Shown here: in pieces, positions 5,445-47,300 of the stretch
Numbering within the stretch: the first letter of the stretch is position 1
Layout of the letters: each line of letters opens with the position of its first letter
NCBI GenBank assembly: GCA_003576915.1
Contig: QEVF01000003.1
Coordinates: forward strand, 113,737 to 177,736
DNA: 64,000 nucleotides
Origin: Planctomycetota bacterium
GTDB lineage: Bacteria; Planctomycetota; UBA8742; UBA2392
Direction: 5' to 3'
Program-made: the position numbers and the translations under genes
Notes under the pieces: model-generated
What the model was told of the DNA's origin: nothing
The model's input: the letters and a program-made list of their open reading frames with translations, nothing else
The model's database searches: none

Positions 5445-7064
5445 TCAGGGGAGGCGCGGGGTCGGCTCTGACTGGACCTTCCTGTCAGGAAGTCTGCCGC
5501 TGCGCGCGATGGACTTCAGATTCCGGCTCAATTCGCTGGTGTCGGCGTCCGGATCTTCTGCCATGGCGCGGTAGCCCGTCTTGCGGGCAAGACCCCTTCG
5601 GGCAGTGGCGCGAGCTTCCTTGTGGCGGCCCATACAGGCCAAAGCGACCGCGCGGTGGCCCTGTGCCGAGCAGAACTCCGCTGTGTCGCCCATGCCGATG
5701 CCCTCAAGGGTCCTGGCTGCATCCTGGGCACATGCGGCGGCGCGGGAGAATTCACCTGTGAGGTTGTACAGGCAGGCCAGGGTGTTGAGGGCGCTGGCCT
5801 CGTAGTAAGGGATCTTGGCCCTCTGGGCCAGCGCAAGGCCGTCAAGCACCAGTCTTAGGGCGCGCCCGTATTCGCCCAGTTCGATGTGGTAGGAGGCAAG
5901 GTTGACGCTGAACAACCCCAGGGAGGACAGATCGCCCAGTTCTTCGGCGATCATCATGGCCTCCTGCATGAGCCGCGCCCCCTGCTCAAAGTTGCGCTCG
6001 GAGAAGTCAAGATTGGCGAGGTTTCCGAGATTGGCGGAGATTCGATCGAGAGCGCCCACCTCGCGCGAGATGCCCAGCGCTTCCTGATAGCATCGCCTGG
6101 CCTGTGCCATGCGCCCCAGCTTGCGAAATGTAATCCCAAGGTTACCCAGCGCGGTGCCCAGGTCGCGCGCATCGCCTCGACTGCGGGCCATGCGCACGCA
6201 GCCTTCAAGAATGGCCCGCGCACGCTGCAACTCGCCGAGGTCATTGAGCACCACCGCGCGATTGACTCTGGAAAGCATGGTGCGGTACTTGTCGCGCCCG
6301 CGCTGAAGCACCCTTTCAGCCTGCTCCAGCATGCGCAAGCCGCGGCGAGGCTGGCCCATCTGAAAGGTCACCACGCCGATCATGTTGACGGCAACGCCCT
6401 CCAATTCGGTGCTGCGCGCGGCTCGGGCGAGCTTCTGCCCCAGGCGCGCGTGGCGCCGGGCCTGCGCCAGACGCGAACTCAGGTAATCCAGTTCGCCGAG
6501 AAGAAGCTCGGCCTGGGCGCAGTCTGCCGGGCGCCCCAGGCGCCGCGCCAGACCACGCGCGCGGCGGGCGGCTTTGCGCGCCGCGTCGAGCTGGCCCCCA
6601 TGGCGCAGGGACCTGGCCAACCCCATCAGGGCCTCAATGGACTGCCGGGTGTTCGCGCCGGAGATTTCGCACAGCCGCGTGTAGCAGGCGGCAGCCTCAA
6701 GGGGCTGATTCAACTGCTCGGCCTCCCGGGCCGCCCGCCGCTGGTAGCGCCGTTCCAGCCTGCGAAGCCTGACGGACCCGGCTTGGCCGGCCTGTGCCAG
6801 GCGGGCGTGCAAAGCCAGGTCGCGGGCGGGCACATGGCCCTTTGACTGCTCCAGGACCGCCAGCGCCAGCGCGTGCAGCCGGGCGCGGGCCGAGGGCATG
6901 AACAGCTGATAGGCCACCTGCTGCGTGAGGGCGTGCGCAAACTGGTAGGCGGACTCCGCCGAGTCCGGCACGAGGGCGTAGGGGCGCGCGGCGACTTGAC
7001 CTAGCCGCGCAGGGTCGTTGCGCCGGGTTGACCGCTGCCGGCCTGGTCGCTGGCCATGTGGCAT
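5445..7064 (-). CDS. TPR-repeat protein (possibly an N-terminally truncated signalling protein)
   Basis: Many tetratricopeptide-like repeats (ALGNLGITFRKLGRMAQARRCYQEAL...). The 5' end overlaps the secA 3' end, so the true start is probably internal, for example the Met near 6899. Confidence 0.65.
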   Translation of the reverse strand: MPHGQRPGRQRSTRRNDPARLGQVAARPYALVPDSAESAYQFAHALTQQVAYQLFMPSARARLHALALAVLEQSKGHVPARDLALHARLAQAGQAGSVRLRRLERRYQRRAAREAEQLNQPLEAAACYTRLCEISGANTRQSIEALMGLARSLRHGGQLDAARKAARRARGLARRLGRPADCAQAELLLGELDYLSSRLAQARRHARLGQKLARAARSTELEGVAVNMIGVVTFQMGQPRRGLRMLEQAERVLQRGRDKYRTMLSRVNRAVVLNDLGELQRARAILEGCVRMARSRGDARDLGTALGNLGITFRKLGRMAQARRCYQEALGISREVGALDRISANLGNLANLDFSERNFEQGARLMQEAMMIAEELGDLSSLGLFSVNLASYHIELGEYGRALRLVLDGLALAQRAKIPYYEASALNTLACLYNLTGEFSRAAACAQDAARTLEGIGMGDTAEFCSAQGHRAVALACMGRHKEARATARRGLARKTGYRAMAEDPDADTSELSRNLKSIARSGRLPDRKVQSEPTPRLP

Positions 7065-10000
7065 TTTTTGTACTTCTTGCCCGAGCCGCAGTGGCAGGGG
7101 TCGTTGGGGCCGGGGAGCTTCTTCTTGTGAGCCATGAAGCCTGTGTCCCGTGAGGGCTGCACGGCCTGCTGCATCTGCCGGCGGGTTTGCTCCTGGGCCT
7201 CGCTGGGCTTGGGCATTTCAGGCTCGGCGGGCATGGCGGGCGGGGCCATCTCCGCGCCGCCGCCGGAGGTTGTGGTGGTGACGGCCGGGTGCAGGGCCTG
7301 GGCCTGGCGCACCTCGCGAACCTGGGGCGCCTCCTCGAACTGGACTTCGATTCGGAAGATGGTGCTGACTACCTCGTGGTCCACGCTGTCCAGCATGGCC
7401 TCGAAGGCTTCGTGGCCCTTCTTCTTGTAGGCGTCCTTGGGGTCCTTCTGGGCGTAGCTTTCCCAGTGGATGCTGCCCTTGATGATCTCCAGGTTCTTGA
7501 GGTGATCCTTCCAATGCTGGTCCAGGCTCTGCAGCACCAGATAGCGCTCCAGTTGGCGCATGCGCCCCGTGGCGGGACGGCCGGCAGGTGTCTTCAGGGC
7601 TGCGCCCGTGGGGTCGGAGCAAATGCGACGCTCGCGCTCTTCGTAGAGCTTCACCGCCCGGTCGTACAGCCAGGTCTGAAGTTTGGTTACGGCCTCCGGT
7701 CCGCCCATGCCGCGCGGCATGTCCTTGGGGTCCACCTCGGCGTTGAAGACGCGGCGGTAATCTGCGGCGATTTCGACGAAGTTCCAGGTGTCGTGGCGCT
7801 CGGGGTCCTTGATGTTGCGCTGCATTGAGGCGGCGATCACGTTGTAGATGCGGTCGAGCAAGTCCTCGCGCAGGCGGTCGGCATGGACCTTGCCGCGGAT
7901 GGTGTGGGCCAGGCGCAGAACGGCCTCCTCGACGGTCTGCTCGCGCAGTGCGTCGTCGGGGATTTCGGCCTCGTGCTCTTCGTCGGCCCAATGGGCCAGT
8001 TTGTTGGCGACGATGGCGCTGATTCTGGTCTGGTCGGAGACGTCGGAGACCTTGTCCAGTTCCTTGACGACCTCAACGACCTTCTTGCGGGCGGCTGTCT
8101 GAAGCGCGAGGAAGTCGGCGCGGTGCATGCCGGCGAGCACGATCTGGCGCTTCTTGTAGACGGCTTTGCGCTGGCCGTTGTTGACGTCGTCGTACTCGAT
8201 GAGGTTTTTGCGGATGTCGAAGTTGCGCTGCTCGACCTTCTTCTGGGCTCGCTCGACGCTCTTGGAGACCATGCGCGCCTGGATGGGCTGGCCGTCCTTG
8301 AGGCCCAGCTTCTGCATGATGCCCTTCATGCGCGGACCGGCGAACATGCGCATCAGGTCGTCATCAAGGGAGATGAAGAACTGGCTCGATCCCGGGTCGC
8401 CCTGGCGGCCACAGCGGCCGCGAAGCTGGTTGTCGATGCGGCGAGATTCGTGGCGTTCTGTGCCGATGACCTGCAGGCCGCCCAGCTTGACGATTTCCTC
8501 GTGTTCGGCATCGATGGCCGGACGGAACTCGCGCGCCTTTTCGTCCACGGCGCGGTCCCAGGCCAGTTCGGCTGCAAACAGGGTGTCGCGCGGAATGCGC
8601 CAGCCCTCGACACCCCGGAACTCCTCGGGCAGGAAGTCTTCGAGTTTCTTGCCCTCGGCGCGCAGGGCCTGTAATGCCATGAACTTGGGGTTGCCGCCCA
8701 GCAGAATGTCCGTGCCGCGGCCGGCCATGTTCGTGGACACCGTGATCTGGCCCTTGCGGCCGGCCTGCGCCACGATTTCCGCCTCGCGCGCGTGAAACTT
8801 GGCGTTGAGGGTGTTGTGCTTGAGCCCCCGGGCATTGAGCAGTCTGGACAGATGCTCGGACTTCTCGACGCTCGTGGTGCCTACCAGAATGGGCCGGCCG
8901 GTCTTGTGGACCTTCTCGATTTCCTCACAGATGGCGGCCCACTTTTCGTCGGCCGTTCCGTAAATCAGGTCTTCGTTGTCGGCGCGGATCAGGGGGCGGT
9001 TCGTGGGAATGGCCACGACGTCGAGCTTGTAGATCTTCTCGAACTCGGCTGCCTCAGTCATGGCGCTGCCGGTCATGCCGCTGATCTTGTTGTACAGCTT
9101 GAAGTAGTTCTGCAGGGTGATGGTGGCCAGGGTCTGGCTTTCCGCGCGCACCCGGATGCCGTGCTTGGCCTCCACGGCCTGGTGCAGGCCGTCGGACCAG
9201 CGGCGGCCGTGCTGCAGGCGGCCGGTGAATTCGTCAACGATGACGATCTCCGGGCCGTCCTCGCCCTCGTGCACGACGTATTCCTTGTCCAGCTTGAACA
9301 GGTTGTTGGCGCGCAGGGCCTGCTCCATCAAATGCGGCCATTCCATGTGCACGCCGTCGTAGAGGTGCTTGACGCCCAGGGCCTTCTCGACCTTGGAGAC
9401 GCCGCGCTCCGTCAGCAGGGCCTGGCTTTCCTTTTCCTTGACCTCGAAGTCGTAGTGGTTGAGTTCGTCGAGATAGAGCTGTTTGTCCTGCAGGGCCGCT
9501 TTGCCGTGCTTGGTGACAATGATGTCCTTCAGTTTTTCAGAGTCGATGCCCTTGAGCGTCTTGGCAATCTCGTCAGCCTTGGCGTACTTGGCCGCGTTGT
9601 CCTCGGCGGCGCCGGAGATGATCAGGGGCGTGCGCGCCTCGTCGATGAGGATGGAGTCCACTTCGTCGATGATGGCGTAATGCAGCTCGCGCTGGACCTG
9701 TGTGCGCGGGTCGACCTTCATGTTGTCGCGCAGGTAGTCAAAGCCGAACTCGTTATTGGTGCCGTAGGTGATATCGCGCGCATACATCTCGCGGCGCTCT
9801 TCATTGTCCATGTCGGTGAGGATGTAGCCGCAGGACATGCCCAGCAGTGCCAATACGCGGCCCTGTTCTTCGGCGTCGCGGCGGGCCAGGTAGTCGTTGA
9901 CAGTCACCACATGGACGCCGCGGCCGTCCAGGGCATTGAGGAAAGCCGCCGGAGTGGCCACAAAGGTCTTGCCTTCGCCGGTCACCATTTCGGCAATCTT

Positions 10001-10345
10001 GCCCTGGTGAAGTACGATGCCGCCCATGAGCTGGACGGGGAAGTGCGCCTTGTAGGGGATGGTCTCGCCGCTGACGGGGTCCTTGACCATCTGGCGGTTG
10101 CCCAGCACGCGCCAGCTGGCTTCGCGCACGAGGGCGAAGGCCTCCACGAGCAGGTCTTCAAGAGACTCGCCGTCTCGACGCCGCTCTTTGAGCCGGGCCG
10201 TATAGTCCTTGAGTTCGGCGTCGGAAAGCGCGTTGGTCTTGGGGAAGAGGTCAAGAATCCTGTTCACGGTGGGCCAGAGCGCCTTGACCAGGCGTTCGTT
10301 GCGCGAACCAATGAAGAAGCGGAGAACCGTATCGAGAAGCGGCAT
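7001..10345 (-). CDS. secA: preprotein translocase ATPase SecA (long form, ~1115 aa)
   Basis: N-terminus MPLLDTVLRFFIGSRNERLVKAL, DEAD-like motor motifs, and C-terminal Zn-binding tail CHCGSGKKYKKCH. Confidence 0.95.
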   Translation of the reverse strand: MPLLDTVLRFFIGSRNERLVKALWPTVNRILDLFPKTNALSDAELKDYTARLKERRRDGESLEDLLVEAFALVREASWRVLGNRQMVKDPVSGETIPYKAHFPVQLMGGIVLHQGKIAEMVTGEGKTFVATPAAFLNALDGRGVHVVTVNDYLARRDAEEQGRVLALLGMSCGYILTDMDNEERREMYARDITYGTNNEFGFDYLRDNMKVDPRTQVQRELHYAIIDEVDSILIDEARTPLIISGAAEDNAAKYAKADEIAKTLKGIDSEKLKDIIVTKHGKAALQDKQLYLDELNHYDFEVKEKESQALLTERGVSKVEKALGVKHLYDGVHMEWPHLMEQALRANNLFKLDKEYVVHEGEDGPEIVIVDEFTGRLQHGRRWSDGLHQAVEAKHGIRVRAESQTLATITLQNYFKLYNKISGMTGSAMTEAAEFEKIYKLDVVAIPTNRPLIRADNEDLIYGTADEKWAAICEEIEKVHKTGRPILVGTTSVEKSEHLSRLLNARGLKHNTLNAKFHAREAEIVAQAGRKGQITVSTNMAGRGTDILLGGNPKFMALQALRAEGKKLEDFLPEEFRGVEGWRIPRDTLFAAELAWDRAVDEKAREFRPAIDAEHEEIVKLGGLQVIGTERHESRRIDNQLRGRCGRQGDPGSSQFFISLDDDLMRMFAGPRMKGIMQKLGLKDGQPIQARMVSKSVERAQKKVEQRNFDIRKNLIEYDDVNNGQRKAVYKKRQIVLAGMHRADFLALQTAARKKVVEVVKELDKVSDVSDQTRISAIVANKLAHWADEEHEAEIPDDALREQTVEEAVLRLAHTIRGKVHADRLREDLLDRIYNVIAASMQRNIKDPERHDTWNFVEIAADYRRVFNAEVDPKDMPRGMGGPEAVTKLQTWLYDRAVKLYEERERRICSDPTGAALKTPAGRPATGRMRQLERYLVLQSLDQHWKDHLKNLEIIKGSIHWESYAQKDPKDAYKKKGHEAFEAMLDSVDHEVVSTIFRIEVQFEEAPQVREVRQAQALHPAVTTTTSGGGAEMAPPAMPAEPEMPKPSEAQEQTRRQMQQAVQPSRDTGFMAHKKKLPGPNDPCHCGSGKKYKKCHMASDQAGSGQPGATTLRG

Positions 10346-10530
10346 GGAGCGAGATCCCAGAGTCAGGGGCGTGGACGGCACGCCCTACGAAATCTTGGCG
10401 CGGCGGGCTATACTCACGGCCCGAGGCACCGCGGTCAAGGAGTTAACGTACGTTGACGGGTTCAGGGAGTCTTGCGCCGGAGCATGGTTCAATGCCTTTG
10501 GGTCGGGCTTGCGCTGCAAGCGAGGTGAGC

Positions 10531-11994
10531 ATGATTAGGAAAGTACTGCTGGTCGCTTTCTCGCTGGGGCTTCTTTTCTGGGCCGGCTCGCGGGGTCAGG
10601 CGCAGGAAGCTGAGCGCGCCGTTGAGCTGAGGCTGGTGGGGTTGAGCCAGGGTTACACCCGGCCCCTGCGCACCACGAGCGAACGTCTTGGGAAGGTGCC
10701 GGGCCTCAGGGAGGTCAAGGCGATTTCCCATCGGGCCGGCATTACGCGCTTCACGGCGCGGACCGCTCTTTCCAACGATGCGATTGCCGCGGCGCTGGGC
10801 CTGAAGCTTCTCGATGCCCGCGACGGCGCGCTGCTGCTTGCCCCGGCAGCGGCCGGCGAGGCCTGGCGTGCGGAAGCCAGGCTGGTCATCCTGGCGATCA
10901 TGGAGGCCATTCGTGAGCGCCAGCACCGGCAGCGGCGCAACATGTGGGACGAACTGCCCAACCTCTTCCCGTCCGAATCCTCCACAGAACAGGCCCTCAA
11001 GGTCCTCGGCTTTGAGCCCAGGATGCTTGAGGGGCGCTTCTTCAAGCTCAAGGACTACCACATTGAGGAAGAGGCGGGCTGGAACGGCACCTACAAGGTC
11101 TGGGCAGGCGAGCGCTATGCACCGGTGCCCGTGGGCAACCTCTACGACTTTGATTTCAGCAACGCCCAGGGGGAGGAGCCCGATGCCAAGGCCCGCTTCG
11201 TCGGCGCCAGGATGAATTTAAGTTCCTGGGGCGGGGGCTTCTGGTGGGTGGATTTCCACGGGTCTGCACTCAACGGCGTCGAATTTGAGCGTGACGCCAC
11301 GGTCGCCGGCAGCGGCACCCTGGCCGTCCAGGCCGGCGCAGAGCGCATCGTCACGGTGCTTCAGGCTGCCGCGCGCTATCGCTTCAAGGAAGGCGTGGAC
11401 AAGAAGACGAAGGACGAACTTCTCCGGGGCAGCCTGGCCAACTGGCAGTCGAAATCCGAACTGGGCCTGGGCGAGGATTACTGGGACTGCCTGCCCTACT
11501 ACAACGATAACGCGTTTTCCCTGAGCTGGTTCAAGCACGAGCAAACCGGCCATCTGCATGCACGCGTCAAGGCCTTCTATCCCAGCCACGCCCTGCACCT
11601 CGACGGCGACCTGGACGTGGACGCGGCCAAGGCATCCGACTTCAACGTCGAAAAGGTTCCCGTGCGCTGGACTGTGGGCGCCGAAAAGGACGCCAACGTG
11701 TTTGAGCAGCGTCGCGTGGAACTGGCCGCGGGTCTCAAGGTCCTGCGCGATGCCTTGTTCGCGCTTCCGGCCCCGCCTCCGGCCGCGAGCGCGCTCAGCG
11801 GACAGGCCCTCTGCGCCGCGCTTTCGCTGGCGGAAGACAAGCTCAAAGGAGCCCACTTCAGCGCCGCCGATTATTTGCTTTTGCCCCAGATGCTGGGAGA
11901 CTGGGAGATTCGCGCCGGATCTTCTGCCACGGGCGGATCAAGCTGGACGCTGGTCAGTTTCACGTCCAAAACCGATATCCGGAGCTACCGCTGA
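10531..11994 (+). CDS. hypothetical secreted protein
   Basis: ATG at 10531 after AGGTGAG. Signal peptide MIRKVLLVAFSLGLLFWAGSRGQAQEA. Confidence 0.5.
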   Translation: MIRKVLLVAFSLGLLFWAGSRGQAQEAERAVELRLVGLSQGYTRPLRTTSERLGKVPGLREVKAISHRAGITRFTARTALSNDAIAAALGLKLLDARDGALLLAPAAAGEAWRAEARLVILAIMEAIRERQHRQRRNMWDELPNLFPSESSTEQALKVLGFEPRMLEGRFFKLKDYHIEEEAGWNGTYKVWAGERYAPVPVGNLYDFDFSNAQGEEPDAKARFVGARMNLSSWGGGFWWVDFHGSALNGVEFERDATVAGSGTLAVQAGAERIVTVLQAAARYRFKEGVDKKTKDELLRGSLANWQSKSELGLGEDYWDCLPYYNDNAFSLSWFKHEQTGHLHARVKAFYPSHALHLDGDLDVDAAKASDFNVEKVPVRWTVGAEKDANVFEQRRVELAAGLKVLRDALFALPAPPPAASALSGQALCAALSLAEDKLKGAHFSAADYLLLPQMLGDWEIRAGSSATGGSSWTLVSFTSKTDIRSYR

Positions 11995-12422
11995 TGCGTA
12001 CTGCCGCCCTCCTGGCACTGGCCCTTGGCCTCTCGTTCTACTGTGTGGCCTGCGGCGATGATCCTGCTCCAACGCCCCAGCCGCGCCCCGCTCCCTCAAG
12101 CGGGATCATCCCCATGTCGAGTATCAGCGAGGCGCAGAAGGCCGAGGCCATCCAGAACATCGGGCAGCTCAAGGCCGCGCTGCAGAGCCGTTCCGTGACG
12201 CCGTACAATCGCAACCTCGAAAAGCTCTCGCGTGACGTCAGCGGCACGTTGAGCGAGGCCACGGCCCAGAAGCTCGGCTTTGCCAGCGTTCAGGGCTTCA
12301 ACGGCCAGTGGTACAAGGCCTCGGACTACGCCATCGCCTACATGGGCAGCGGCAAGTTCCTGATTACGGCGGGCCAGCTCAACCAGCCCAACTACATCAG
12401 CGAGGAAGTGCTGATCCGCTGA
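11994..12422 (+). CDS. hypothetical lipoprotein
   Basis: Lipobox MRTAALLALALGLSFYCVACGDD. Start overlaps the upstream stop. Confidence 0.5.
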   Translation: MRTAALLALALGLSFYCVACGDDPAPTPQPRPAPSSGIIPMSSISEAQKAEAIQNIGQLKAALQSRSVTPYNRNLEKLSRDVSGTLSEATAQKLGFASVQGFNGQWYKASDYAIAYMGSGKFLITAGQLNQPNYISEEVLIR

Positions 12423-12461: not shown

Positions 12462-14324
12462 TTGAGTCAACTTCTTGCGATGTCCTTTGACGGCCTGGCT
12501 TCGCCGTCCATCACCCTCAAGCCCGAGCGGCGCCAGACCGCGGACCAGCCCTTTGGCTGGGGCTTTGCCTGGTATCCGCGCGGCGACAACGCGGCCGTCG
12601 TGATCAAGGACCCCACCAGCATCGGCGAAAACGCCATGACGAAGGTCCTGCGGGACTGGGAGCGCTTCCAGAGCTGCGTGTTTGTCTGCCATATCCGTGG
12701 TGCCGCGCAACGCATCACCCAGCAGGATACCCACCCCTTTGAGCGCAGCTACGCCGGCCGCGACTGGATCATGGCCCACAATGGAGATCTGGTGGGCGAC
12801 CTGGACGCCACTTTTCCACTGGAGGTGCAGTCGCCCTTTGAGCCCATCGGGCTGACGGATACCGAGCACGTGTTCTGCTGGCTGCTGTCCCAGGTGCGGG
12901 GCATGGGCGCGCGCTGCCTGGCGGACATAGGCTGGCACAAGCTCTATGCCTGGTTCGGCGAACTGAACCGGCACGGCACGGCCAACTTCCTGCTCTCCGA
13001 CGGGCAGGACCTCGTGGTGTACCACGACAAAGACCGCTTCAACGGCCTTCACTGGACAAGGCGGCTGCCGCCCCACGCCAGCTTCAAGCTGGAGAACGAC
13101 GAAGTGCTGCTCGACTTCTCCGACGAAATGGACACCAACCGCACCGTCGTTGTGGTCAGCACCCGTCCCCTGGCCGGAGACGACGGCTGGAAGGCCATGG
13201 AAGGCGGCCAGATGCTGGTCTTGCGCCGCGGCTCCATGGTGTGGAACAGCCAGGGCGCGGCGCTGCAGGGCGTTGTCGGGGCGGGCGATACATCCATTCG
13301 CGCCTCCAAGGCCACAGGTAAGGTGCAGGTGCCCGTGGGGGCGCAGGGCGCGGCACGCAAGCCGCATACAAGGGGGCGGCCCCATTCGGGGCGTCTGCGC
13401 GCCGTAGCCACCGAGCAGCGGGTGTTTGACGTGCTGCACGAAACGGTCTACCGCTATGACACGCCCGTTGAGCGTTCGACGCACGTGTTCCGGCTCAAGC
13501 CCGTGGTTGACCCCGTGCAGCAGCTCATCAGTCACAAGCTCAGCATCAACGTGGACGGGCTGCGCCGCGAGTTCGAAGATGTGTTTGGCAACGCTGCCAC
13601 CAACCTGGAAGTTGAAAGCCCCTTCAAGGAAATGCGAATTGTCTCGCGCTCGCTCGTGCGCGTGAACGGCGCGGGGCTTTCGCTGCAGCGCTCGCCATCG
13701 CGGCGCCTGACCATTCCGCTGGTCTGGATGCCCTGGCAGCGACAGATGATGATGCCCTACCTGCTTCCCCCGGAGTTGCCCGAGACCCAGCTTGCCGAGC
13801 TGTCTGACTTTGCGATGAGCTTCGTCGAGCGCCAGAACTTCGACCTGCTGGAAACGCTGGTCGACATGAACATGACGATTTACCGCGACTTCCGTTATGT
13901 CTCGGGCAGCACCCGGAACGAAACTACGCCCTTTGAGGTTTACACGCAGCGCAAGGGCGTCTGTCAGGACTTTGCCAACCTGCTCATCTGCCTGGCGCGC
14001 CTGCTGAGCATCCCCGCGCGCTATCGCGTCGGCTACATCTACACCGGCGCCAACTACGCCAACAAGGTCCAGAGCGAAGCCAGTCATGCCTGGGCGGAAC
14101 TCTATCTGCCCTGGGTCGGCTGGCGCGGCTTTGATCCCACCAACGGCTGTGTGGTCGGAAGCGACCACGTTCGCGTGGCCTGCGGCCGCAACTACCTTGA
14201 TGCGACGCCAACCAGCGGCACCATCTATGCCGGCGGCGGGCCGGAGACCCTGAGCGTGAACGTGAAAGTCGAGGTGGCCGGCGAGTCAGATCTGGCAGAG
14301 CTTGCGGCCAATGACGAAAGCTGA
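12462..14324 (+). CDS. fusion protein: class-II glutamine amidotransferase-like (YafJ-type) N-domain + Bact_transglu_N + transglutaminase-like core
   Basis: TTG at 12462 with GGAG 5 nt upstream. N-terminus MSQLLAMSF resembles YafJ-type MCELLGMS but has Ser where the nucleophilic Cys sits. Motifs CHIRGA, HPF, HNGDL. Mid-region YRYDTPVERSTHVFRLKP. Transglutaminase triad context GVCQDF, HAWAELYLPWVGW, GFDPTNG. Confidence 0.75.
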   Translation: MSQLLAMSFDGLASPSITLKPERRQTADQPFGWGFAWYPRGDNAAVVIKDPTSIGENAMTKVLRDWERFQSCVFVCHIRGAAQRITQQDTHPFERSYAGRDWIMAHNGDLVGDLDATFPLEVQSPFEPIGLTDTEHVFCWLLSQVRGMGARCLADIGWHKLYAWFGELNRHGTANFLLSDGQDLVVYHDKDRFNGLHWTRRLPPHASFKLENDEVLLDFSDEMDTNRTVVVVSTRPLAGDDGWKAMEGGQMLVLRRGSMVWNSQGAALQGVVGAGDTSIRASKATGKVQVPVGAQGAARKPHTRGRPHSGRLRAVATEQRVFDVLHETVYRYDTPVERSTHVFRLKPVVDPVQQLISHKLSINVDGLRREFEDVFGNAATNLEVESPFKEMRIVSRSLVRVNGAGLSLQRSPSRRLTIPLVWMPWQRQMMMPYLLPPELPETQLAELSDFAMSFVERQNFDLLETLVDMNMTIYRDFRYVSGSTRNETTPFEVYTQRKGVCQDFANLLICLARLLSIPARYRVGYIYTGANYANKVQSEASHAWAELYLPWVGWRGFDPTNGCVVGSDHVRVACGRNYLDATPTSGTIYAGGGPETLSVNVKVEVAGESDLAELAANDES

Positions 14325-16260
14325 CGCGGCCATGCTTCGCGCGCAGAAATCGAGGTTGCAGGCGGCCCTGACGTCTGCCCTAAGTGTTGCCCGCCAGTTG
14401 CGCGGCGGGCGCGTTGCCGACTACATTCCTGAACTGGCCAAGGCCGACCCCGCCAGCCTGGCCTTGGCGGCCTGCACACCCGACGGCGTGGTCTGCGAGC
14501 TGGGCGAGGCTTCGCTCGAATTCACGATTCAGTCCATCAGCAAACCGTTCGTGTACGGGCTGGCGCTGGCCGATCACGGCGTGGAGGCTGTGCACCGGCG
14601 CGTCGGGGTGGAGCCCGCCGGCGACAGTTTCAACTCCATCATCCGCCTGGAGCAGAGCACCAACCGGCCCCACAACCCCATGATCAATGCGGGGGCCATT
14701 GCCGTCACGAGCCTGATCGAGGCACGCGAGGGAAAGCCGCCGCTTCAGCGGCTGCTGGACCTGTTTGCCGCGGCCGCCGGCCGCAAGTCCGTGCAGGTGG
14801 ATTTGCCGGTCTACCTTTCCGAAGCCGCCAGTGGCCACCGCAACCGGGCCATTGCCCACCTGATGAAGCACTTCGGGATGCTGCGCGGCGACATTGACCG
14901 CACGCTGGAGCTCTACTTTCAGCAGTGTTCCGTGCTGGTCAGTTGCCGCGACCTCGCGGTCATGGCCGCTACCCTGGCCAACCAGGGCGTCAACCCGCTG
15001 ACGGGCGAGCGCGTACTGCCCGCCGAGGCGGTCACCCACGTGCTGAACGTGATGTTGACCTGCGGCCTCTATGACTTCGCGGGGCAATTCGCGTTTGAGG
15101 CCGGCATTCCCGCCAAGAGCGGTGTCTGCGGCGGCATCCTGGCGGTGGCCCAGGGCAAAGCCGGGCTGGCCTGCTTCTCGCCCCCGCTGGACGAGCGCGG
15201 CAACAGCCTGCGTGGCCTGGCGGCCATGCGTGAGCTCTCGCAGAGCCTGGGGCTGCACGCCTTTGATGCGCCCCCGGCCCGGCGCCCCTCGACGCGGCAG
15301 GCCGCCATCTCGGCGCGGCCTTCCAGGCGCACGGGCGCGGGTACCGCGCGCCTTGATGCGCTGCTGGCCGAGGTGCATCGCCGCCGGCGCGGCGAGTCCG
15401 GCGGGGCGCCTGCCTCATACATTCCGCAACTGGCTCGGTGTGATGCGCGGCTGTTCGGATTGGCGCTGTGCACGGTGGGGGGCGAAGAAGCAGCCCAGGG
15501 CGACGTGGACGTTCCGTTCACGTTGCAGGCCGCCGCCAATGTGTTCACGTACAGTCTGGCATTGCAGGCGCGGGGCAAGGACGTGGTGCACGGGAAGGTG
15601 GGATTTGAGCCCAGCGGCAATCCGTTCAACGCGATCATCTTTGATCCGCGCACGCAGCGCCCCTTCAACCCCCTCAGCAACGCGGGGGCCATTGCCATAT
15701 GTTCGACGATTCCCGGTCAGGGTGCCACGGCGCGCCTCAATCACCTGCTTGAGGGCATGGGCCGCTTTGCGGGCGAAGACAAGCTGCGCGTGGACCTGCA
15801 GGTCATGCTGGCCGAGCGCCAGGCCGGAGAACGCAACAAGGCCATCGCCTGCCTGCTGCGCAATTTCAACGTGATTGACGACGAAGAAGCGGCACTGGAA
15901 CTCTACTTCCAGCAATGCAGCGTGAGCGTGAATTGCCGGCAGTTGGCGCGCATGGGCGCGGCGCTGGCCGCCGGCGGCGTGAACCCGCGAACCGGGCATG
16001 TCGCGCTCGACGCCGATCACGTCAAACGCGTGCTCGCCCTCATGTACATGTGCGGCCTTCATGACGGCTCGGGGCAGTTCGCATTTGACGTGGGCATGCC
16101 GGCCAAGAGCGGCATCTCGGGCGGGCTGGTGGCAGTCGTTCCCGGCCAGTTCGCAGTGGCCGCCTTTTCTCCCCCCGTCGATGCCAAGGGCACCAGCGTG
16201 CGCGGAGCTCTGGCCCTGCACGACATTTCGGCGGCCTTGAGGGTGGGCTTGTTTGCCTGA
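14302..16260 (+). CDS. glsA: tandem-duplicated glutaminase (two GlsA-like domains in one 652-aa protein)
   Basis: Domain 1 has DYIPELAKAD and QSISKPFVYGLAL (Ser-x-x-Lys). Domain 2 has SYIPQLARCD and QAAANVFTYSLAL (Ser-x-x-Lys lost). The two halves align residue by residue. Confidence 0.85.
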   Translation: MRPMTKADAAMLRAQKSRLQAALTSALSVARQLRGGRVADYIPELAKADPASLALAACTPDGVVCELGEASLEFTIQSISKPFVYGLALADHGVEAVHRRVGVEPAGDSFNSIIRLEQSTNRPHNPMINAGAIAVTSLIEAREGKPPLQRLLDLFAAAAGRKSVQVDLPVYLSEAASGHRNRAIAHLMKHFGMLRGDIDRTLELYFQQCSVLVSCRDLAVMAATLANQGVNPLTGERVLPAEAVTHVLNVMLTCGLYDFAGQFAFEAGIPAKSGVCGGILAVAQGKAGLACFSPPLDERGNSLRGLAAMRELSQSLGLHAFDAPPARRPSTRQAAISARPSRRTGAGTARLDALLAEVHRRRRGESGGAPASYIPQLARCDARLFGLALCTVGGEEAAQGDVDVPFTLQAAANVFTYSLALQARGKDVVHGKVGFEPSGNPFNAIIFDPRTQRPFNPLSNAGAIAICSTIPGQGATARLNHLLEGMGRFAGEDKLRVDLQVMLAERQAGERNKAIACLLRNFNVIDDEEAALELYFQQCSVSVNCRQLARMGAALAAGGVNPRTGHVALDADHVKRVLALMYMCGLHDGSGQFAFDVGMPAKSGISGGLVAVVPGQFAVAAFSPPVDAKGTSVRGALALHDISAALRVGLFA

Positions 16261-16442
16261 CGCGGCTGGAGCATTTTCAGGGGTTTTCTTCAGGCACGGG
16301 CTTGCGGCGAACCGCGTCGGGTCGTGTTCGCCTCGCCGCGCATGGCTCTTGGCATGCTATCGGCCCGGCTGCCTTGCCCGACTCGCCCGGCGCAACGCGA
16401 TTGCTCTGAAGACAAACCCTTAAACTGCTCTATATTTCGCCC

Positions 16443-17084
16443 ATGCTTTCCACATTCATCTCGGTCAAGACACGGCTGCCTGACCTCTGCACCGAGGTGT
16501 GGAGCTATGCGCTGGAGCTGCGCCGGGGAGGCGACCCCGGCGGCGCCGCGGCCGTCAAGAGCAAGGTCAGCAGCCTGTTTCGGCTGCTGGACAAGCAGGC
16601 CAAGCTGGCGCAGGTCGAGCAGGGGGACCTCCAGCAGGCCAAGTATGCCCTCTGCGCTCAGATCGACGAGATCGTGATGTCATCGGGCTGGCCCTGGCGC
16701 GACAACTTCGCGCCGCTGTGCGTCGAGTATTACGGCGACGCCGCCGCCGGCGAGAACTTCTTCCAGCGCCTCGAGACCTTCCGCCATTCCACGGAGACGC
16801 GCCGCCGCGACCTGCTCGAGGTGTTCTACATCTGCTTAGCCCTCGGTTTTCAGGGCAGGTACTCCGACACCCGGGGTCTCGAGCAGCGCAAGGCCCTCCT
16901 GGACGGCATCAGCCGCGAACTTTGCGGCGAATCCGCGCGCCCCCTTAGCGTGCAGGTGACCTCGCCCGACCCCCTGCCCGGGCCGCGTACCCCGCGCCCA
17001 CTCTGGATCGTACCGGCACTTTGCCTGCTGGCCGTGGGCGCGCTCTATGCCGCGCTGTCCTGGGCCCTGGGAACGACGGCATGA
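16443..17084 (+). CDS. tssL: DotU/TssL-family membrane protein
   Basis: DotU signature region DEIVMSSGWPWRDNFAPLCVEYYG and RRDLLEVFYICLALGFQGRY. C-terminal TM helix LWIVPALCLLAVGALYAAL. Confidence 0.8.
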   Translation: MLSTFISVKTRLPDLCTEVWSYALELRRGGDPGGAAAVKSKVSSLFRLLDKQAKLAQVEQGDLQQAKYALCAQIDEIVMSSGWPWRDNFAPLCVEYYGDAAAGENFFQRLETFRHSTETRRRDLLEVFYICLALGFQGRYSDTRGLEQRKALLDGISRELCGESARPLSVQVTSPDPLPGPRTPRPLWIVPALCLLAVGALYAALSWALGTTA

Positions 17085-20000
17085 ATCTGCGCGCCCTGAT
17101 TTCAGCGTTTATCAAGGAAGGCGGCATCGGACTGGCCGTGATCGTGCTGCTGGTGATGATGGTCTTGGTCGGCGGCGATTACTTCGAGCTTGAGCCCCGC
17201 CTGACGCAGGCGCTGATGGCGGGCATCGTGTTCGCAGGTCTCGCGATTTACGCGGCGAGGCGCATCATGGCCCGCCGCCAGGCGCGCAAACTGACGTCAA
17301 AGTTCATGGAGCTGGCGGCCGAGGACGCCGATGCCACCTTGGGCGAGCGCAAGGCCCGGCAGCAGGAGATTGCGTCTCTGCTTCGTGAGGGCGTGGCCGC
17401 CCTGCGCCTGTCGGAGCAGGGAGAGCAGGCCGTCACCCGCCTTCCGTGGTATCTCGTCATCGGCCCCGCCGGAGCCGGCAAGAGCACACTGCTGGAGGCT
17501 TCCGGCCAGAACTTCGCGCCGCTGGGCCGCGCACGCAGGCCGGTCACCGAGGCCGGCACCACGCGCGACCTGGACTGGTGGGTTGGCGGCCAGGGCGTGT
17601 TTCTGGATGTGCCCGGCCGCTACATCTCAGATGCCAGTGCTCCCTTTGAGTGGCCGGCCTTTGTCAGCGCTTTGAAGGAAACACGTGCCCAGGCGCCGGT
17701 TTCAGGGGTGCTGGTCGTCATACCCCTGCCCGAGATTCTCGCGTTGAAAAACGACGAGTTGGAACCCTGGGCCAAGAACATCCGCGACCGCCTCGATGAA
17801 CTCAGCGGCCAGTGCCGCTGGGTGTTTCCCGTTTATGTGGTCTTCAGCAAGTGTGACTGTGTCAAGGGCTTCGATGCCGCGTTCTCGAATCTGGCGACGG
17901 AGGGGCGCCGGCAGGCTTTTGGCGCCACGCTTCCCTTTGCCATCGACGAGAACCGAAACTACCGCACCATCTTTCATGACGAGTGCAACCGCCTCAGCGA
18001 GCCCCTGCGCCTTCAGGTTCTTGCCTCCCTGGCCCAGGATCTACCCGCAGCGCTCAAGGAAAGCATGGCGCTTTTCCCGCGGCAGTTCTTTCTGGCCCAG
18101 CGCCGCATGGGTGAAGTGCTGGGACCCGTCTTCCGACCCAACCCGTTCATTGAGACGGGCCTGCTGCGCGGCTTCTACTTCACCAGCGCCACCCAGGGCG
18201 GAGCCCTGCATGACCTGGTGTCTGAGCGGGTGGAGCCACGGCCCGTTCCCGTTGAAACGGCGGCGTTTTTCGTGGAGCAGATCTTCGCCGATGTGCTGCC
18301 GCCCGACCGTTTTCTGGCGCGCCTTTCCCTCAAAGAATCGCAGCGCAGACGCGTCCTTTCCACGGCGCTGGCCGCGGCCAGCCTGCTGCTGGCCCTGATG
18401 GTCTCGGCGGGCATGGCCCTTGCCTTCAGCGAGCGCCGCCAGAGCATCGTTTCGCTGGCGCAGGCGCGCGCCCATCCCGACCCCCTTGCGCGCATGGATG
18501 CCCTGCGCGATGCCCTGCTGCAGGCCGAGGGTAACCGCTCGCCTGTCACCCGCATGTTTGTTTTCAGCGGGGACCCCGAGGGCCGCGCCCTGGGCGAGGC
18601 GCGACAGGAATACCATCAGGCCCTGCGCGCCCATGTCATTCAACCCGCGGCTGACACCCTGGCGGCGGAAATCCAGCGCCTGAGGGATCAGCAAGTCCGA
18701 TCCATCGCTGATTACGACCGCATGCTGGCTGCATTTTCGGCCCTGCGTGCCCTTGCCGGCCGCGGCGACCTGAACGCGGAGGCCCTGCGCCCGGAACTTG
18801 AGCGCACCCTGGCATTGCTGGCTCCGCAAGCGGCCACACGCGAGATTCTCTTCCGGCAGTCGGACTATCTGCTGGCGCGGCCGGGAGAGCTGGCTTCCTG
18901 CCGTGCGCAGATCGCAAGCGGCCTGCTGGAGATCGTCGATCGCGAGTTGCGCGGGGCACTCTGGATTGAGGCGGCCTTTGCCGAAGTCCTGCGCGAGGCG
19001 CCCGCTGACCTTCCCGCCGTGAATCTGGAAGACCTTGTCGCTTCTCCCGGCCGCAGTTACCTCGCGCTGGGGCAGCCCGTGCCTGGCCTCTACACCCAGC
19101 GCGGCTACGACACGTACGCGGGGCCCGCCATGGCATCGCGGGCCCGGGAGATTGCGAGGCGCTATGGGGCGCTGGGCGAAAACAGGCCCGCCTGGAGTGT
19201 CGAGGCTTCATTGACAGACTACTACGCCGACGCCTACGCCCGGGCCTGGGATGATGCCCAGGCGTCGTTTGCGGTGGCTGACTTCGCCTCACTGAGCGAC
19301 TGCGCTGCGGGTCTGAAGCACCTGACAGGGCCGGATTCGGCCATGCGCGAGCTCATGGTTTCGCTGCGCGCAGGGCGCACGCTGCTGCTCAAGAACGGGA
19401 CGCAGCGCAACGCCGCCGGCGACGACCTGAAGTGGCTTGATTCCGGGCTGAGTCAGCTCAGGACAGTTCAGACGGCCCTGGAGGCCATGTTGCAGCGCAC
19501 CCATGCGGGTTCCCACCTGATGGAGTACCTGGCCCAGGAAAAATTGGACGCGCTGCTGGATACTCTCAACGGTGTGGCCCGCGGCATGGAGGATGTGGTG
19601 GCGGCGGCGCCCCGCGAGTCTCGCGGCCGCATGGGCGCCGTGCTTTCCGCCCTGCTTGGGGGAGTTATCCGAGAACTGCGCGAGGCGGCACTGGCCGAGG
19701 CCGGCGAAGTCTGGAGGGCAAGCGTGGCTTCGACATGGCGGTTGGACCTCGCGCCTTACTATCCGTTCAACGCCGAGAGCGTAAGCGAGGCCTCCCCTGG
19801 GACGGTTTCGCGCCTGCTCAATCCCAAGAACGGCAACCTGTGGGTGGCCCTGGCCCAAATGGAAAAGCTCCGTGCCAAGGCGGTCAACGGTCGGCCCCTG
19901 CTGGAGTACGGCCCGGAGTTCAGCGCTGCCCTGGAGCGTGCCGCCAGACTGCGTGACCTGCTTTTCGATGGAGGCGAGACGCTGAGCGTGCCCTTCTCGG

Positions 20001-20389
20001 TGGTGTTTGACCGGGGCGAAGGCGTGTCCGATGTGGGCTTCACGCTCGGCGACAAGTCCGTCACCTACACCGACCTGGGCACGAAGGCCGCCGAGTTTGC
20101 CTGGACGGAGTCCATGGCCCCCGGCGTACGCATTCAGGCCCGCGTGGGGCAGTCGCTGTGGCTGACCCGGTCCTACCCTGCGCAGAAGTGGGCGATCGTG
20201 AGGCTCTTCAGCGATGCCAGGCGAACCCCGGTGGGCGAGCAGCGCGTCAAGTGCGCCTGGGTCTTCACGCAGGTGCTGGGGACCCGAAACTTGAGCTTCA
20301 TGGCCTATGCCGAGTTCGAGTTCCGATCCGGGGTGGCCTTTGACCCCGCGCTCTTCACTGAACTCAAGTTGCCCGAGACCATGCGCTAG
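17081..20389 (+). CDS. tssM: IcmF/TssM-family inner-membrane NTPase
   Basis: ATG overlaps the tssL stop (ATGA). N-terminal TM helices, Walker A LVIGPAGAGKSTLLEASG, a third TM helix, then a ~700-aa periplasmic region. Size and topology are typical of TssM. Confidence 0.85.
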   Translation: MNLRALISAFIKEGGIGLAVIVLLVMMVLVGGDYFELEPRLTQALMAGIVFAGLAIYAARRIMARRQARKLTSKFMELAAEDADATLGERKARQQEIASLLREGVAALRLSEQGEQAVTRLPWYLVIGPAGAGKSTLLEASGQNFAPLGRARRPVTEAGTTRDLDWWVGGQGVFLDVPGRYISDASAPFEWPAFVSALKETRAQAPVSGVLVVIPLPEILALKNDELEPWAKNIRDRLDELSGQCRWVFPVYVVFSKCDCVKGFDAAFSNLATEGRRQAFGATLPFAIDENRNYRTIFHDECNRLSEPLRLQVLASLAQDLPAALKESMALFPRQFFLAQRRMGEVLGPVFRPNPFIETGLLRGFYFTSATQGGALHDLVSERVEPRPVPVETAAFFVEQIFADVLPPDRFLARLSLKESQRRRVLSTALAAASLLLALMVSAGMALAFSERRQSIVSLAQARAHPDPLARMDALRDALLQAEGNRSPVTRMFVFSGDPEGRALGEARQEYHQALRAHVIQPAADTLAAEIQRLRDQQVRSIADYDRMLAAFSALRALAGRGDLNAEALRPELERTLALLAPQAATREILFRQSDYLLARPGELASCRAQIASGLLEIVDRELRGALWIEAAFAEVLREAPADLPAVNLEDLVASPGRSYLALGQPVPGLYTQRGYDTYAGPAMASRAREIARRYGALGENRPAWSVEASLTDYYADAYARAWDDAQASFAVADFASLSDCAAGLKHLTGPDSAMRELMVSLRAGRTLLLKNGTQRNAAGDDLKWLDSGLSQLRTVQTALEAMLQRTHAGSHLMEYLAQEKLDALLDTLNGVARGMEDVVAAAPRESRGRMGAVLSALLGGVIRELREAALAEAGEVWRASVASTWRLDLAPYYPFNAESVSEASPGTVSRLLNPKNGNLWVALAQMEKLRAKAVNGRPLLEYGPEFSAALERAARLRDLLFDGGETLSVPFSVVFDRGEGVSDVGFTLGDKSVTYTDLGTKAAEFAWTESMAPGVRIQARVGQSLWLTRSYPAQKWAIVRLFSDARRTPVGEQRVKCAWVFTQVLGTRNLSFMAYAEFEFRSGVAFDPALFTELKLPETMR

Positions 20390-26103: not shown

Positions 26104-26197
26104 GACATCCTCCGTGATGGTCGGGCAGAAGCCCAAAATGGGCAGGCATCCGTGCCTGCCTCTGAGCCCGCAACGCGGGCGCAGCATGACGTGTCTG

Positions 26198-44386: not shown

Positions 44387-47300
44387 ATGCCCACGACAAG
44401 AGCGTGTTTGCTGAGTTTCGCGTTTGGGCTCATGGCGGTGCTGCTTGCGGGCTGCGGTCCGGGGTTGCTGGCACTGGCAGGCGGCTCCGGCGGCGGCATC
44501 TTTGCGTTTGCGGGCAACAAGAAGGACAAGGATGGCGGGCCCGCTCCCTCTACCAACTCTCCGCCCGTGGTGGTGATCAACTCCCTGACCCGCGAAGATG
44601 CGCCCGCGAGCATCAACTACACGTTGATCGACGCCAACTCCGACCTGTGCAGTGTGCAGGTGACCTGGTCGCGCGACGGCATCAACTTTTTTCCGTGTAC
44701 CCAGGGCGTGGGCGGTGACCCGGTGACGTTCCTGAACTCCGGTCCCAGTGGGTCAGCCAAGGTGTTCAAGTGGGACTATGAAATTGACCTGCTGACCACG
44801 GAGCTGGAGACGGGTCTGCACATCGCCATTGTGGCCAACGACGGGGCGGGCCCCGGGCCGGTGGCATCCCTCGGCGGGCTGGTGGCGGGCAATGATGCCC
44901 CCGTGGTGAACCAGACGACTTCACCGCAATCGCCGGATGTTCTGGTCACGGGCAGTCTGGTGCTGGTGACGTTCAATATCCGCGATTCCAGCGCAGACGT
45001 GGCGGGCATGGTCGTCGCCTTCACGCTGGATCAGGGTCAGACCTTTACGGAACTTGCGACGGGCGATTTCGTCGGCACTCCGCCCACGGCGTTGCTGACC
45101 ACGCCCCTGGGCGCTGCGGGCCAGTTCATCTGGAATTCGAGTGTGGCCCTGCCGGGCTTTGCGGGCTCGGATGTCTATCTGGCGTTGATTCCCGTGGATC
45201 GGCCTTCGGGCTGGACGGACTTCACGGTAGGCGACCCGGTGTTCGTGGGCCCCATCACGCTCAATAACGTCCAGAACGGGCCGCCGGAGCTGACGCTGGT
45301 TTCCAGCGTGGCCGGCGATTCCTTTGTCGGCAAGGTGCCCCTGCAATTCACATTAAGCGACAGCGGCAGCGACAGTGCTGAAGTCGCCGTGGAATACACC
45401 ATCGACGGAACCAACTGGCTGCCCGCGCGCCTCACAGGCCAGGCCACGACGCAGCCGGCGGGTCCCTTTGTCTGCTCGCCCAATCCGCGCCTTTACTCGC
45501 TGGAGTGGAATGGACTGGCGGACCTGGCAGCCCAGGGTGCCAAGAACGTGGAGTTGCGACTGACGCCCGTGGAGCTGGGGTCTTCGCCCGCCGTCTACGG
45601 CACCACGATTTACACGGGCACGTTCAGCTTTGCGGACAACGAGGCGCCGGAGGTCAGCGACTTCGAGGTGTACCAGAATTCCGGCAACATCTCCGTGCGC
45701 ATCCAGATCAAGGACAGCAGCAGCGACGAAGTCTCCTGCGCCATTACGGCGACCTGGAACGGCGGCTCCAGCAGCGTGATACTGAGCAATTCTGATTTCG
45801 TCGTGGGCAACCTGGGCCAGATGAGCTCTGGAGTGTCCGGAGAGGACAACATCCTGATCTGGAACTCCAACATCGCCCTGCCCCTGACCAACGCTGCAGA
45901 CGTCGTCTGGGAGATCACGCCCACGGATAACCCCCAGGGTTTCCCCGCGGCGGCCCTGCCGGGCCCCACCTACTTCTCGGCCAGCTTTTCCGTGATCAAC
46001 AACCCCGCAGCCGCGACGCCGGCGGGCATCACGCTCGTGGAGGACAACGGCCGCGTCACGGTGAATGTCTCGCAGACGCGCAACTTCACAGCCACCATCC
46101 TGCCTGCGGCGGCCGCCGACCACACCGTAACCTGGGACATCGTGGAGGGCGGCGGCAACGGCAGCATTGTGCCCGTTTCCAGCCCCCTGCAGGGCCCGCA
46201 AACGGCGCTTTACACGGCCCCGGCGACACTGGCCCTGAGCAACCCGAATTTCTGCACGGTGCGAGCCACCAGCACCGTGACCGGAGCCGTCACGGCCACG
46301 TGGCGGCTGTACTGGGGCGATGCCCCGAGCAGCGTGAACGTGACGCCAACGCCCGTCGATGTCGTGGCCGGCCTCACCCAGCAGTTCACTGCCTCGGTGG
46401 CACCCGCAGGCGCCCCGCAGCAGGTCAACTGGTCTGTGGTGGGCGGGTCAGCCAACGGCACCATCACCCAGGGCGGACTATACACGGCGCCTACCACACT
46501 GCCGGCGGTCAAACAGATCAACGTGCGTGCCACAAGTGTTGATGGCGCGGTTTTCGGATCGGCGGTGGTCAATCTCAAACCCAGCCCCGTCTCGCTGCTG
46601 GTGACGGAGAGCGTAGGCTCCAGTCAGGGTCCCTCGCAGGTGACGCTGGGGCAAAGCCTCAGCCTGATGGCGACCGTCAACCCGCCGGACGCACCCCAAC
46701 AGGTCTACTGGACCATCGACTGGAACGGCGTGAACCAGGGTTCGGGCAATTCCACAGTGGGATTCGTCAATGCCTCGGGCCTCTATTCTTCGCCCTCGGC
46801 CTTGCCCTCGCCCAGTCAGGTTTTCGTACGGGCGCGCAGCCAGGTGGTTTCCAGTGTGACTGACGACTACCAGATCAACCTTGTGGCCCCGCCGCCCACC
46901 AGCTTCCAGGTGTCGCCCGCTACGGCCATCGTCACGGCGGGCGGCGCCGGCGTTGACTTTGATGCAGTCAACTTCGTGCCGGCCAACGCCAACCAATCCG
47001 TAATCTGGACCATCAACCCGGTCTTCGGAAGCATTGACAGCGCTTCGGGCGTCTATACGCCGCCCCCGAGCGCGGCATCCAGCCAGAACGTCACGGTCAC
47101 GGCCACGAGTTCCGTGGCAGGAACCGTTACTGCCACCGCCGTTGTGACCGTCAACCCCAGCACGGGAACTTTGCCCAGCAGCCTGACCATCTCGCCCAAT
47201 GAAGGGCGAACTTTCGTGCAGGGCCGCGTCCTGATTTTCACGGCCACGGTGCTGCCCGCCGGCGCCTCCCAATCCGTCAACTGGTCGGTGGTAAGCGGAG

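Follow-up and report, generated by a model that had tools for sequence, protein, structure and literature searches.

A Tandem Glutaminase of a Planctomycetota Bacterium Combines a Predicted Active Domain with a Conserved Degenerate Domain

Two glutaminase domains are fused in a single polypeptide encoded on a 64,000-nucleotide stretch of the genome of a Planctomycetota bacterium (GenBank assembly GCA_003576915.1, contig QEVF01000003.1, positions 113,737 to 177,736 of the forward strand). This stretch as a whole is called the window here, and all positions are counted from its first letter. The tandem glutaminase gene (14311-16260, + strand) codes for 649 amino acids plus stop. Its first domain holds the complete catalytic set of the glutaminase family; its second domain has lost the catalytic Ser, Lys and Tyr, retains the residues that bind the substrate, and is conserved in this form in a large group of relatives. 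The most likely reading is a single-chain heterodimer, in which domain 1 would provide the working active site and the partner site in domain 2 would bind ligand without catalysis; the probability of this reading is estimated at about 0.6.

Results

Two glutaminase domains in one polypeptide

An open reading frame (ORF) at 14302-16260 on the + strand, as given by the original prediction, is present and reads as one continuous protein, with TTG 14302 as its mechanical start. Since the database protein P0001 has exactly the length (649 amino acids) and sequence (100% identity) of the product from ATG 14311 (MTKAD...), this ATG is the likely start codon. The stop codon TGA of the upstream gene lies at 14322-14324, and the overlap counted from ATG 14311 amounts to 14 nucleotides instead of the 23 nucleotides reported earlier.

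Pfam found two complete stretches of PF04960 (Glutaminase) in the protein (722.9 bits versus a cut-off of 27). The better of them, residues 33-318 in domain 1, covered all 286 profile positions. NCBIfam TIGR03814 (glutaminase A) also matched in two stretches (669 bits versus a cut-off of 255). When the halves were aligned with each other, they shared 45% identity over 308 amino acids (E = 5e-85). Thus, the earlier view of two full GlsA-like domains in one polypeptide was confirmed. Domain 1 spans residues 26-319 (14386-15267, + strand), and its alignments to PDB entries extended over residues 27-327 for 3agd and residues 26-319 for the glutaminase KGA. Domain 2 spans residues 341-649 (15331-16257, + strand). 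Between them lies the inter-domain linker APPARRPSTRQAAISARPSRR (15268-15330, + strand). Its description as basic holds for the query, in which the net charge is +6 over 21 amino acids, but not for the family, in which neither the length (6-61 amino acids) nor the net charge (-6 to +6) of the linker is conserved.

Loss of the catalytic residues and retention of the ligand pocket in domain 2

In KGA, Ser286 is the nucleophile and Lys289 the general base, and Tyr466, located 2.7 Å from Ser286, joins in proton transfer; most of the activity is gone in the mutants S286A, K289A and Y466A (PMC4929687). The ligand is held by Tyr249, Gln285, Asn335, Glu381, Asn388 and Tyr414 and by the backbone of Val484 (PMC4929687). 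Domain 1 of the query carries the equivalents of Y249, Q285, S286, K289, N335, E381, N388, Y414, Y466 and V484. As had been noted before, it keeps the motif QSISKPF, in which S75-I-S-K78 (14533-14544, + strand) corresponds to Ser286-x-x-Lys289 of KGA. Together with Tyr254 (15070-15072, + strand), the equivalent of Tyr466, residues S75 and K78 make up the catalytic set by which the family is recognized, and the complete domain 1 is predicted to be catalytically competent.

At the alignment position of QSISKPF, domain 2 reads QAAANVF. Domain 2 alone aligned with the catalytic domain of human KGA (3CZD, 4O7D) at E = 3e-64 and gap-free around the motif, with 'vpfcLQSCVKplkY' of KGA over 'vpftLQAAANvftY' of domain 2. 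In this alignment, A407-A-A-N410 (15529-15540, + strand) lies over Ser286-x-x-Lys289, i.e., Ser286 is replaced by Ala407 and Lys289 by Asn410. Likewise, 'cgmYdfsgqfaf' of KGA aligned with 'cglHdgsgqfaf', so that His584 (16060-16062, + strand) takes the position of Tyr466. The original prediction had pointed to the replacement of both Ser residues of the motif by Ala and of Lys by Asn. These substitutions are present, but only the first Ser is the nucleophile, the second being non-catalytic, and the exchange of Tyr for His is a third catalytic loss that lies outside the motif. Since the sole Ser-x-x-Lys of the entire protein sits at residue 75, the motif of domain 2 is lost and not shifted; a shifted motif is also ruled out by the gap-free alignment with KGA.

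Domain 2 keeps the equivalents of Y249, Q285, N335, E381, N388, Y414 and K481; N453, E502, N509 and Y532 are among its pocket residues. The substrate-binding set known from KGA (Y249, Q285, N335, E381, N388, Y414) is, hence, complete in both domains of the query, and the catalytic Ser, Lys and Tyr survive in domain 1 alone. Judged by its catalytic residues, domain 2 is a homologue of the glutaminase family and not a functional glutaminase. The alignment with KGA and the intact catalytic set of domain 1 support, at the level of sequence, the proposed fusion of an active glutaminase to a pseudo-glutaminase.

Predicted structure

An AlphaFold2 model of the whole 649-residue chain was built on an alignment of 81 sequences and reached a mean predicted local distance difference test score (pLDDT) of 93.7 and a predicted template modeling score (pTM) of 0.93. 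Given this pTM, the placement of the two domains relative to each other is predicted with confidence. The pLDDT fell below 90 in three segments only: the linker (residues ~321-340), which had the lowest confidence of the model (57-63), a loop of domain 1 (residues ~101-120) and the matching loop of domain 2 (residues ~431-450). In a Foldseek search against the PDB, either half matched GLS, YbaS and Mglu at an rmsd of 1.5-2.1 Å with a template modeling score (TM-score) to the target of about 0.9. The identities of these matches formed two sets of ~43% and ~37%, which is consistent with matches to each half. Thus, the serine beta-lactamase-like glutaminase fold was recovered by the model and Foldseek. 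No solved chain spanning both halves was found in the PDB by Foldseek (TM-score to the query of ~0.45); since about half of the query is the most that any PDB chain covers, no structure of a tandem glutaminase has been solved.

Conservation of the degenerate domain

More than 120 full-length proteins with two domains, about 610-730 amino acids long, were obtained in the homologue search. Residues were tallied for 121 sequences in three sets, namely a main group of 72 (including the query), a small group of 9 and a cyanobacterial group of 40. The catalytic Ser and Lys of domain 1 were invariant in all sets (121/121). In the main group, domain 1 carried Ser, Lys and Tyr at the positions of KGA Ser286, Lys289 and Tyr466 in all 72 proteins. 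The corresponding positions of domain 2 were occupied by Ala (57), Ser (14) or Gly (1) for Ser286, by Asn (67), Ser (2) or Thr (2) for Lys289 and by His (68) or Tyr (4) for Tyr466. The ligand pocket was retained in both domains of the main group: the equivalents of Gln285, Glu381, Asn388 and Lys481 were found in 72 of 72 proteins in either domain, those of Asn335 and Tyr414 in all 72 copies of domain 1 and in 71 copies each of domain 2, and that of Tyr249 in 72 copies of domain 1 and 68 of domain 2. Substrate-binding residues were, thus, at least 94% conserved in both domains. The small group differed in that its domain 2 keeps Ser, with Lys replaced by Asn or His and Tyr by Asn.

The replacement residues of domain 2 in the main group are themselves fixed (Asn 93%, His 94%), which argues for selection on the altered site and against drift. 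Columns were then screened that are at least 85% conserved in single-domain glutaminases and in domain 1 of the main group and that show another consensus in domain 2 of the main group. Just five positions were obtained (286, 289, 380, 466 and 484 in KGA numbering), all of them in or next to the catalytic centre. Besides the catalytic three (286, 289 and 466), these are the residue before Glu381 (380) and a conservative exchange of Val for Ile at a position of the oxyanion hole (484). Thus, the divergence of domain 2 targets the catalytic centre only. The mean pairwise identity of domain 2 was 0.555 as compared to 0.577 for domain 1. By these comparisons, domain 2 looks like a pseudoenzyme under purifying selection and is not a decaying relic.

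Evolution and distribution

For neighbor-joining trees, the halves were separated, and single-domain glutaminases and KGA served as references. Domain 2 of the main group was monophyletic in 277 of 300 bootstraps, and the pairwise distances of domain 1 correlated with those of domain 2 (r = 0.85), indicating a joint inheritance of both halves that goes back to one old fusion. In the cyanobacterial proteins, the two halves grouped as sisters in 198 of 200 bootstraps. Since its halves are mutual sisters, the cyanobacterial duplication arose independently, and a single origin of all tandem glutaminases was ruled out for this group. By neighbor-joining, the nine-member group with QSIANPF and the exchange of Tyr for Asn fell apart from the main group, with weak resolution.

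The degenerate form occurs in Planctomycetota, including the cultured Engelhardtia mirabilis, and in Acidobacteriota (Sulfidibacter, Acanthopleuribacter and metagenome-assembled genomes (MAGs) labeled Thermoanaerobaculia). It was also found in MAGs labeled Bdellovibrionales, Myxococcales, Gemmatimonadales and Dehalococcoidia. It spans, therefore, at least two named phyla, and the MAG labels suggest five more lineages. Upon clustering at 50% identity, the family accounted for about a dozen clusters within the 150 best representatives, and 11 loci were obtained when contigs were scanned with a narrow motif specific for domain 2. Among the best 150 representatives at 50% identity, no clear stand-alone gene of the domain 2 type was found, only multi-domain or N-terminally truncated entries. 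The phylogenetic survey suggested with the original prediction thus revealed the degenerate tandem to be old, conserved and present in several phyla.

Longer proteins of 750-1300 amino acids with two or three glutaminase domains were observed as well (P0128, P0132-P0135, P0141, P0148, P0255 and P0267). Their first domain has an intact QSxxK, and in the second domain Lys is replaced by Asn or Ser (QHCAN, QAVAS, QSICN, QSIAN). Judging from these motifs, the pairing of an active with a degenerate glutaminase may have arisen repeatedly.

Genomic context

The flanks of the gene were as predicted, with a fusion of GATase and transglutaminase upstream and tssL-tssM downstream, both confirmed by Pfam. 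The upstream gene (12462-14324, + strand) encodes GATase_4 fused to both Bact_transglu_N and Transglut_core, and its stop overlaps the start of the glutaminase gene. Downstream, DotU/TssL (16443-17084, + strand) and IcmF/TssM (17021-20389, + strand) follow on the same strand after a gap of 183 nucleotides, and a promoter-like match, weak as evidence, lies just upstream of tssL (16409-16436). TssL/TssM genes were found next to the tandem glutaminase at none of 18 other loci. No other core genes of the type VI secretion system (T6SS) were found in the 64-kb window, and the ORFs scanned in it contained no gene for VgrG, Hcp or PAAR, in a scan that did not look specifically for motif-level markers such as MIX. 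The tandem glutaminase itself carries no effector-type domain, as Pfam finds Glutaminase only. A conserved linkage to the T6SS was ruled out, since the adjacency of tssL-tssM is limited to this window (0/18 other loci), and these neighbors are incidental and specific to this genome. The tssL and tssM genes look like an isolated pair and not like a full T6SS cluster.

In the Planctomycetota relatives at 65-89% identity (L002-L007, representing the five distinct relatives L002, L003=L006, L004, L005 and L007), the gene closes an operon of four genes in the order CP_ATPgrasp, Alpha-E, GATase_4/transglutaminase fusion and tandem glutaminase. A transglutaminase-DUF2126 gene and a DUF2126 gene are oriented divergently from this operon. 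In L001-L007, the GATase_4/transglutaminase gene adjoins the tandem glutaminase. Only these last two operon genes remain in the window and in L001, a contig identical to it; the GATase_4/transglutaminase gene is 85% identical to its orthologue in L002, and the glutaminase shows 76% identity. The position of CP_ATPgrasp and Alpha-E in the close relatives is occupied in the window by two ORFs, 10453-11994 (513 amino acids) and 11994-12422 (142 amino acids), both on the + strand with a stop/start overlap of 1 nucleotide. They have signal-peptide- or lipoprotein-like N-termini and adjoin secA on the opposite strand. When they were considered as diverged ATP-grasp and Alpha-E genes, no similarity was obtained by tblastn, Pfam or NCBIfam, and both were left unassigned. 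In a Planctomycetota MAG (L013, 7833-10822), the gene just before the tandem glutaminase codes for an Alpha-E homologue (58% identity), and no GATase_4/transglutaminase gene intervenes, which suggests that the order of the module varies within Planctomycetota.

In the more distant members (L008-L014 and L016-L019), the neighbors were unrelated to one another. Since this is so and since tssL-tssM is unique to the window, the tandem enzyme is a self-contained unit, which one Planctomycetota clade has recruited to an ATP-grasp/Alpha-E/transglutaminase system. For CP-ATP-grasp/Alpha-E/transglutaminase (Anbu-type) operons, a role in the synthesis or modification of peptides has been predicted (Iyer et al. 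2009, as cited in PMC5666114).

Discussion

Proposed mechanism and alternatives

The near-invariant ligand pocket of domain 2, the fixed Asn and His in its altered centre and the predicted rigid two-domain body argue for a single-chain heterodimer with a binding, non-catalytic second domain. The protein would act as a cytoplasmic glutaminase in which domain 1 converts glutamine to glutamate and ammonia by the standard Ser/Lys/Tyr mechanism. Domain 2 would be an old paralogue whose centre was disabled by the exchange of the nucleophile Ser for Ala, of the general base Lys for Asn and of the proton-relay Tyr for His. Because nucleophile, base and relay Tyr are gone, it is predicted to be unable to hydrolyze glutamine. 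It has retained its fold and all residues expected to hold glutamine or glutamate by the alpha-amino and alpha-carboxylate groups. We infer that domain 2 packs tightly on domain 1 and serves as a site at which glutamine, glutamate or a gamma-glutamyl compound is bound but not turned over. As a fixed structural and allosteric partner, it may stabilize or regulate the single active site; a role of domain 2 as a regulatory or binding module, which had been considered possible from the start, is plausible from its residues. In the lineage studied here, the gene is predicted to be co-transcribed, and probably translationally coupled, with the GATase_4/transglutaminase fusion and to stand apart from tssL-tssM.

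A more far-reaching version of this mechanism would make domain 2 a sensor of glutamine or glutamate (or a gamma-glutamyl compound) that derives from an enzyme site and switches the active domain allosterically. In this Planctomycetota clade, it would couple the nitrogen status to peptide modification by the GATase_4/transglutaminase (ATP-grasp/Alpha-E) system. This version is tentative and is considered possible more than expected.

Several observations weigh against the heterodimer with a ligand-binding partner site or against its link to the operon. Ser is still present at the nucleophile position of domain 2, without Lys, in 14 of the 72 main-group proteins, and residual or altered chemistry is conceivable in these members from their residues. 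Neither CP_ATPgrasp nor Alpha-E gave a tblastn match in the 64-kb window. Outside one Planctomycetota subclade, the neighbors vary, and a link to ATP-grasp and transglutaminase can therefore not explain the family as a whole.

The main rival explanation takes domain 2 as a scaffold that stands in for the second subunit of a dimer and stabilizes domain 1 without binding or regulation of its own. It would agree with the fixed two-domain body suggested by the pTM of 0.93, with the loss of the catalytic residues and with the lack of lone domain-2-type sequences among the best 150 representatives. However, a pure scaffold would not need the equivalents of N335, E381, N388, Y414, Q285 and K481, which are kept in 71-72 of 72 proteins, and the fixed replacements by Asn and His in a disused pocket would be left unexplained; a scaffold role alone is, on balance, unlikely. 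The same fixed replacements, being conserved and not random, could point to a new catalytic function of domain 2, e.g., on a gamma-glutamyl amide or on peptide-bound glutamine by means of Asn/His or of the KSG serine, and the neighbors in the clade (ATP-grasp, transglutaminase and GATase_4) are predicted to make or break amide bonds. Yet the nucleophile position is variable (A57/S14/G1), the general base is gone, and the positions that differ systematically include no alternative conserved nucleophile. Also, no precedent is known for a hydrolase of the serine beta-lactamase-like fold that works without the Ser/Lys pair, and a new catalytic function is regarded as improbable.

A function of the tandem glutaminase in type VI secretion (effector, accessory enzyme or metabolic helper) would draw on tssL-tssM following on the same strand after 183 nucleotides. 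It is very improbable in view of the other loci, of which none of 18 has TssL/TssM nearby, of the window, which holds no further T6SS core gene, of the Pfam result, which gave no domain besides glutaminase, and of the promoter-like site that precedes tssL. An assembly or annotation artefact, with two genes read as one, or a relic state of domain 2 would have nothing but the loss of catalytic residues in its favor. The continuous two-domain architecture is shared by over 120 independent proteins of many assemblies, the conservation of domain 2 comes close to that of domain 1, and domain 2 was modeled at a confidence of 94-99, except for the loop at residues ~431-450 (<90), so that this explanation is hardly credible. 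The single-chain heterodimer with a ligand-binding partner site is, thus, preferred.

Comparison with known systems

GlsA/YbaS (1U60), YbgJ (1MKI) and human GLS/KGA (3CZD) have the fold common to both halves of the query, with a Foldseek rmsd of 1.7-2.0 Å, a TM-score to the target of about 0.92 and sequence E-values of 1e-58 to 1e-76, and they share the catalytic Ser-x-x-Lys/Tyr set and the substrate-binding residues with domain 1. Their chains have a single domain, and they are assembled from identical subunits that all carry an active site, whereas the query consists of two diverged fused copies, the second of which lacks Ser, Lys and Tyr. The query is, by sequence and fold, a member of the glutaminase family in which only the first domain has the residues required for catalysis; it is a variant within a known family and no new kind of system.

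The same architecture is found in cyanobacterial tandem glutaminases of 650-730 amino acids, e.g., from Coleofasciculus PCC 7420 and Leptolyngbya PCC 7375 (P0072, P0090). In contrast to the query, these keep Ser-x-x-Lys and Tyr in both halves. In the cyanobacterial group (P0060-P0120), the Glu381 equivalent of domain 1 is replaced by Lys or Arg (40/40) and the Tyr249 equivalent of domain 2 by Ser (39/40). Read from these residues, the cyanobacterial tandems represent a different, complementary change of the active sites in an independently duplicated lineage.

Pairs of an active domain and a dead paralogue that is kept as a structural or regulatory partner are known from rhodanese-type tandem duplications and from the AdoMetDC prozyme of trypanosomes. 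Their fold and chemistry are unrelated to those of glutaminases, and they can serve as an analogy only for the partner role proposed for domain 2. With Anbu-type CP-ATP-grasp/Alpha-E/transglutaminase operons, the connection is one of context, as the nearest Planctomycetota relatives carry the tandem glutaminase as the last gene of such an operon. The operons described so far carry Anbu and no glutaminase, and the transglutaminase is here fused to GATase_4. A full-text literature search with incomplete coverage found no paper on a tandem, duplicated or pseudo-glutaminase of this family, which amounts to absence of evidence only.

Glutaminases are studied intensively, partly as cancer targets, and their activity is tied to their assembly, since the formation of filaments and catalysis are coupled in GAC and GLS2 (PMC9949068). 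The tandem enzyme offers a natural and conserved design in which one of two fused sites is switched off and its ligand pocket kept, i.e., a ready-made system for determining the contribution of the second site in a glutaminase pair, be it binding, cooperativity or stability. It also corrects the annotation of proteins of ~620-690 amino acids that are labeled 'glutaminase A' and of which half is a pseudoenzyme. Furthermore, a glutaminase is added to the ATP-grasp/Alpha-E/transglutaminase systems, which hints at a part of glutamine/glutamate chemistry in their role. If domain 2 were indeed a sensor, it would represent a class of pseudoenzyme regulators acting within their own polypeptide that has not been described before, in an enzyme family of medical importance.

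Other Observations in the Window

The GATase_4/transglutaminase gene showed a further peculiarity. A TTG start and the peptide '(M)SQLLAMSFDG' are encoded at 12462-12485, before the annotated ATG, and are conserved in all close relatives (L001-L003, L005 and L007). Class-II amidotransferases of the GATase_4 family begin with Met-Cys (e.g., 'MCELLGMS' of YafJ). By this comparison, the N-terminal nucleophile of the GATase_4 domain may be Ser instead of Cys, and this domain may also be non-canonical. The PDB alignment of the GATase_4 domain begins only at residue 26. The Cys, His and Asp motifs of the transglutaminase part of this gene look intact.

Elsewhere in the window, the ORF at 8792-10456 (+ strand, 554 amino acids) is a shadow ORF of the real gene secA (7001-10381, - strand, 1126 amino acids; NCBIfam 1064 bits). 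An unusually long flagellin of 984 amino acids, with Flagellin_N and Flagellin_C at its ends, is encoded at 23233-26187 (- strand). Large proteins are encoded at 44387-49405 (+ strand), a Kelch/Big_2 protein of 1672 amino acids, and at 49409-53986 (+ strand), a Ser/Thr kinase of 1525 amino acids fused to an FGE-sulfatase domain.

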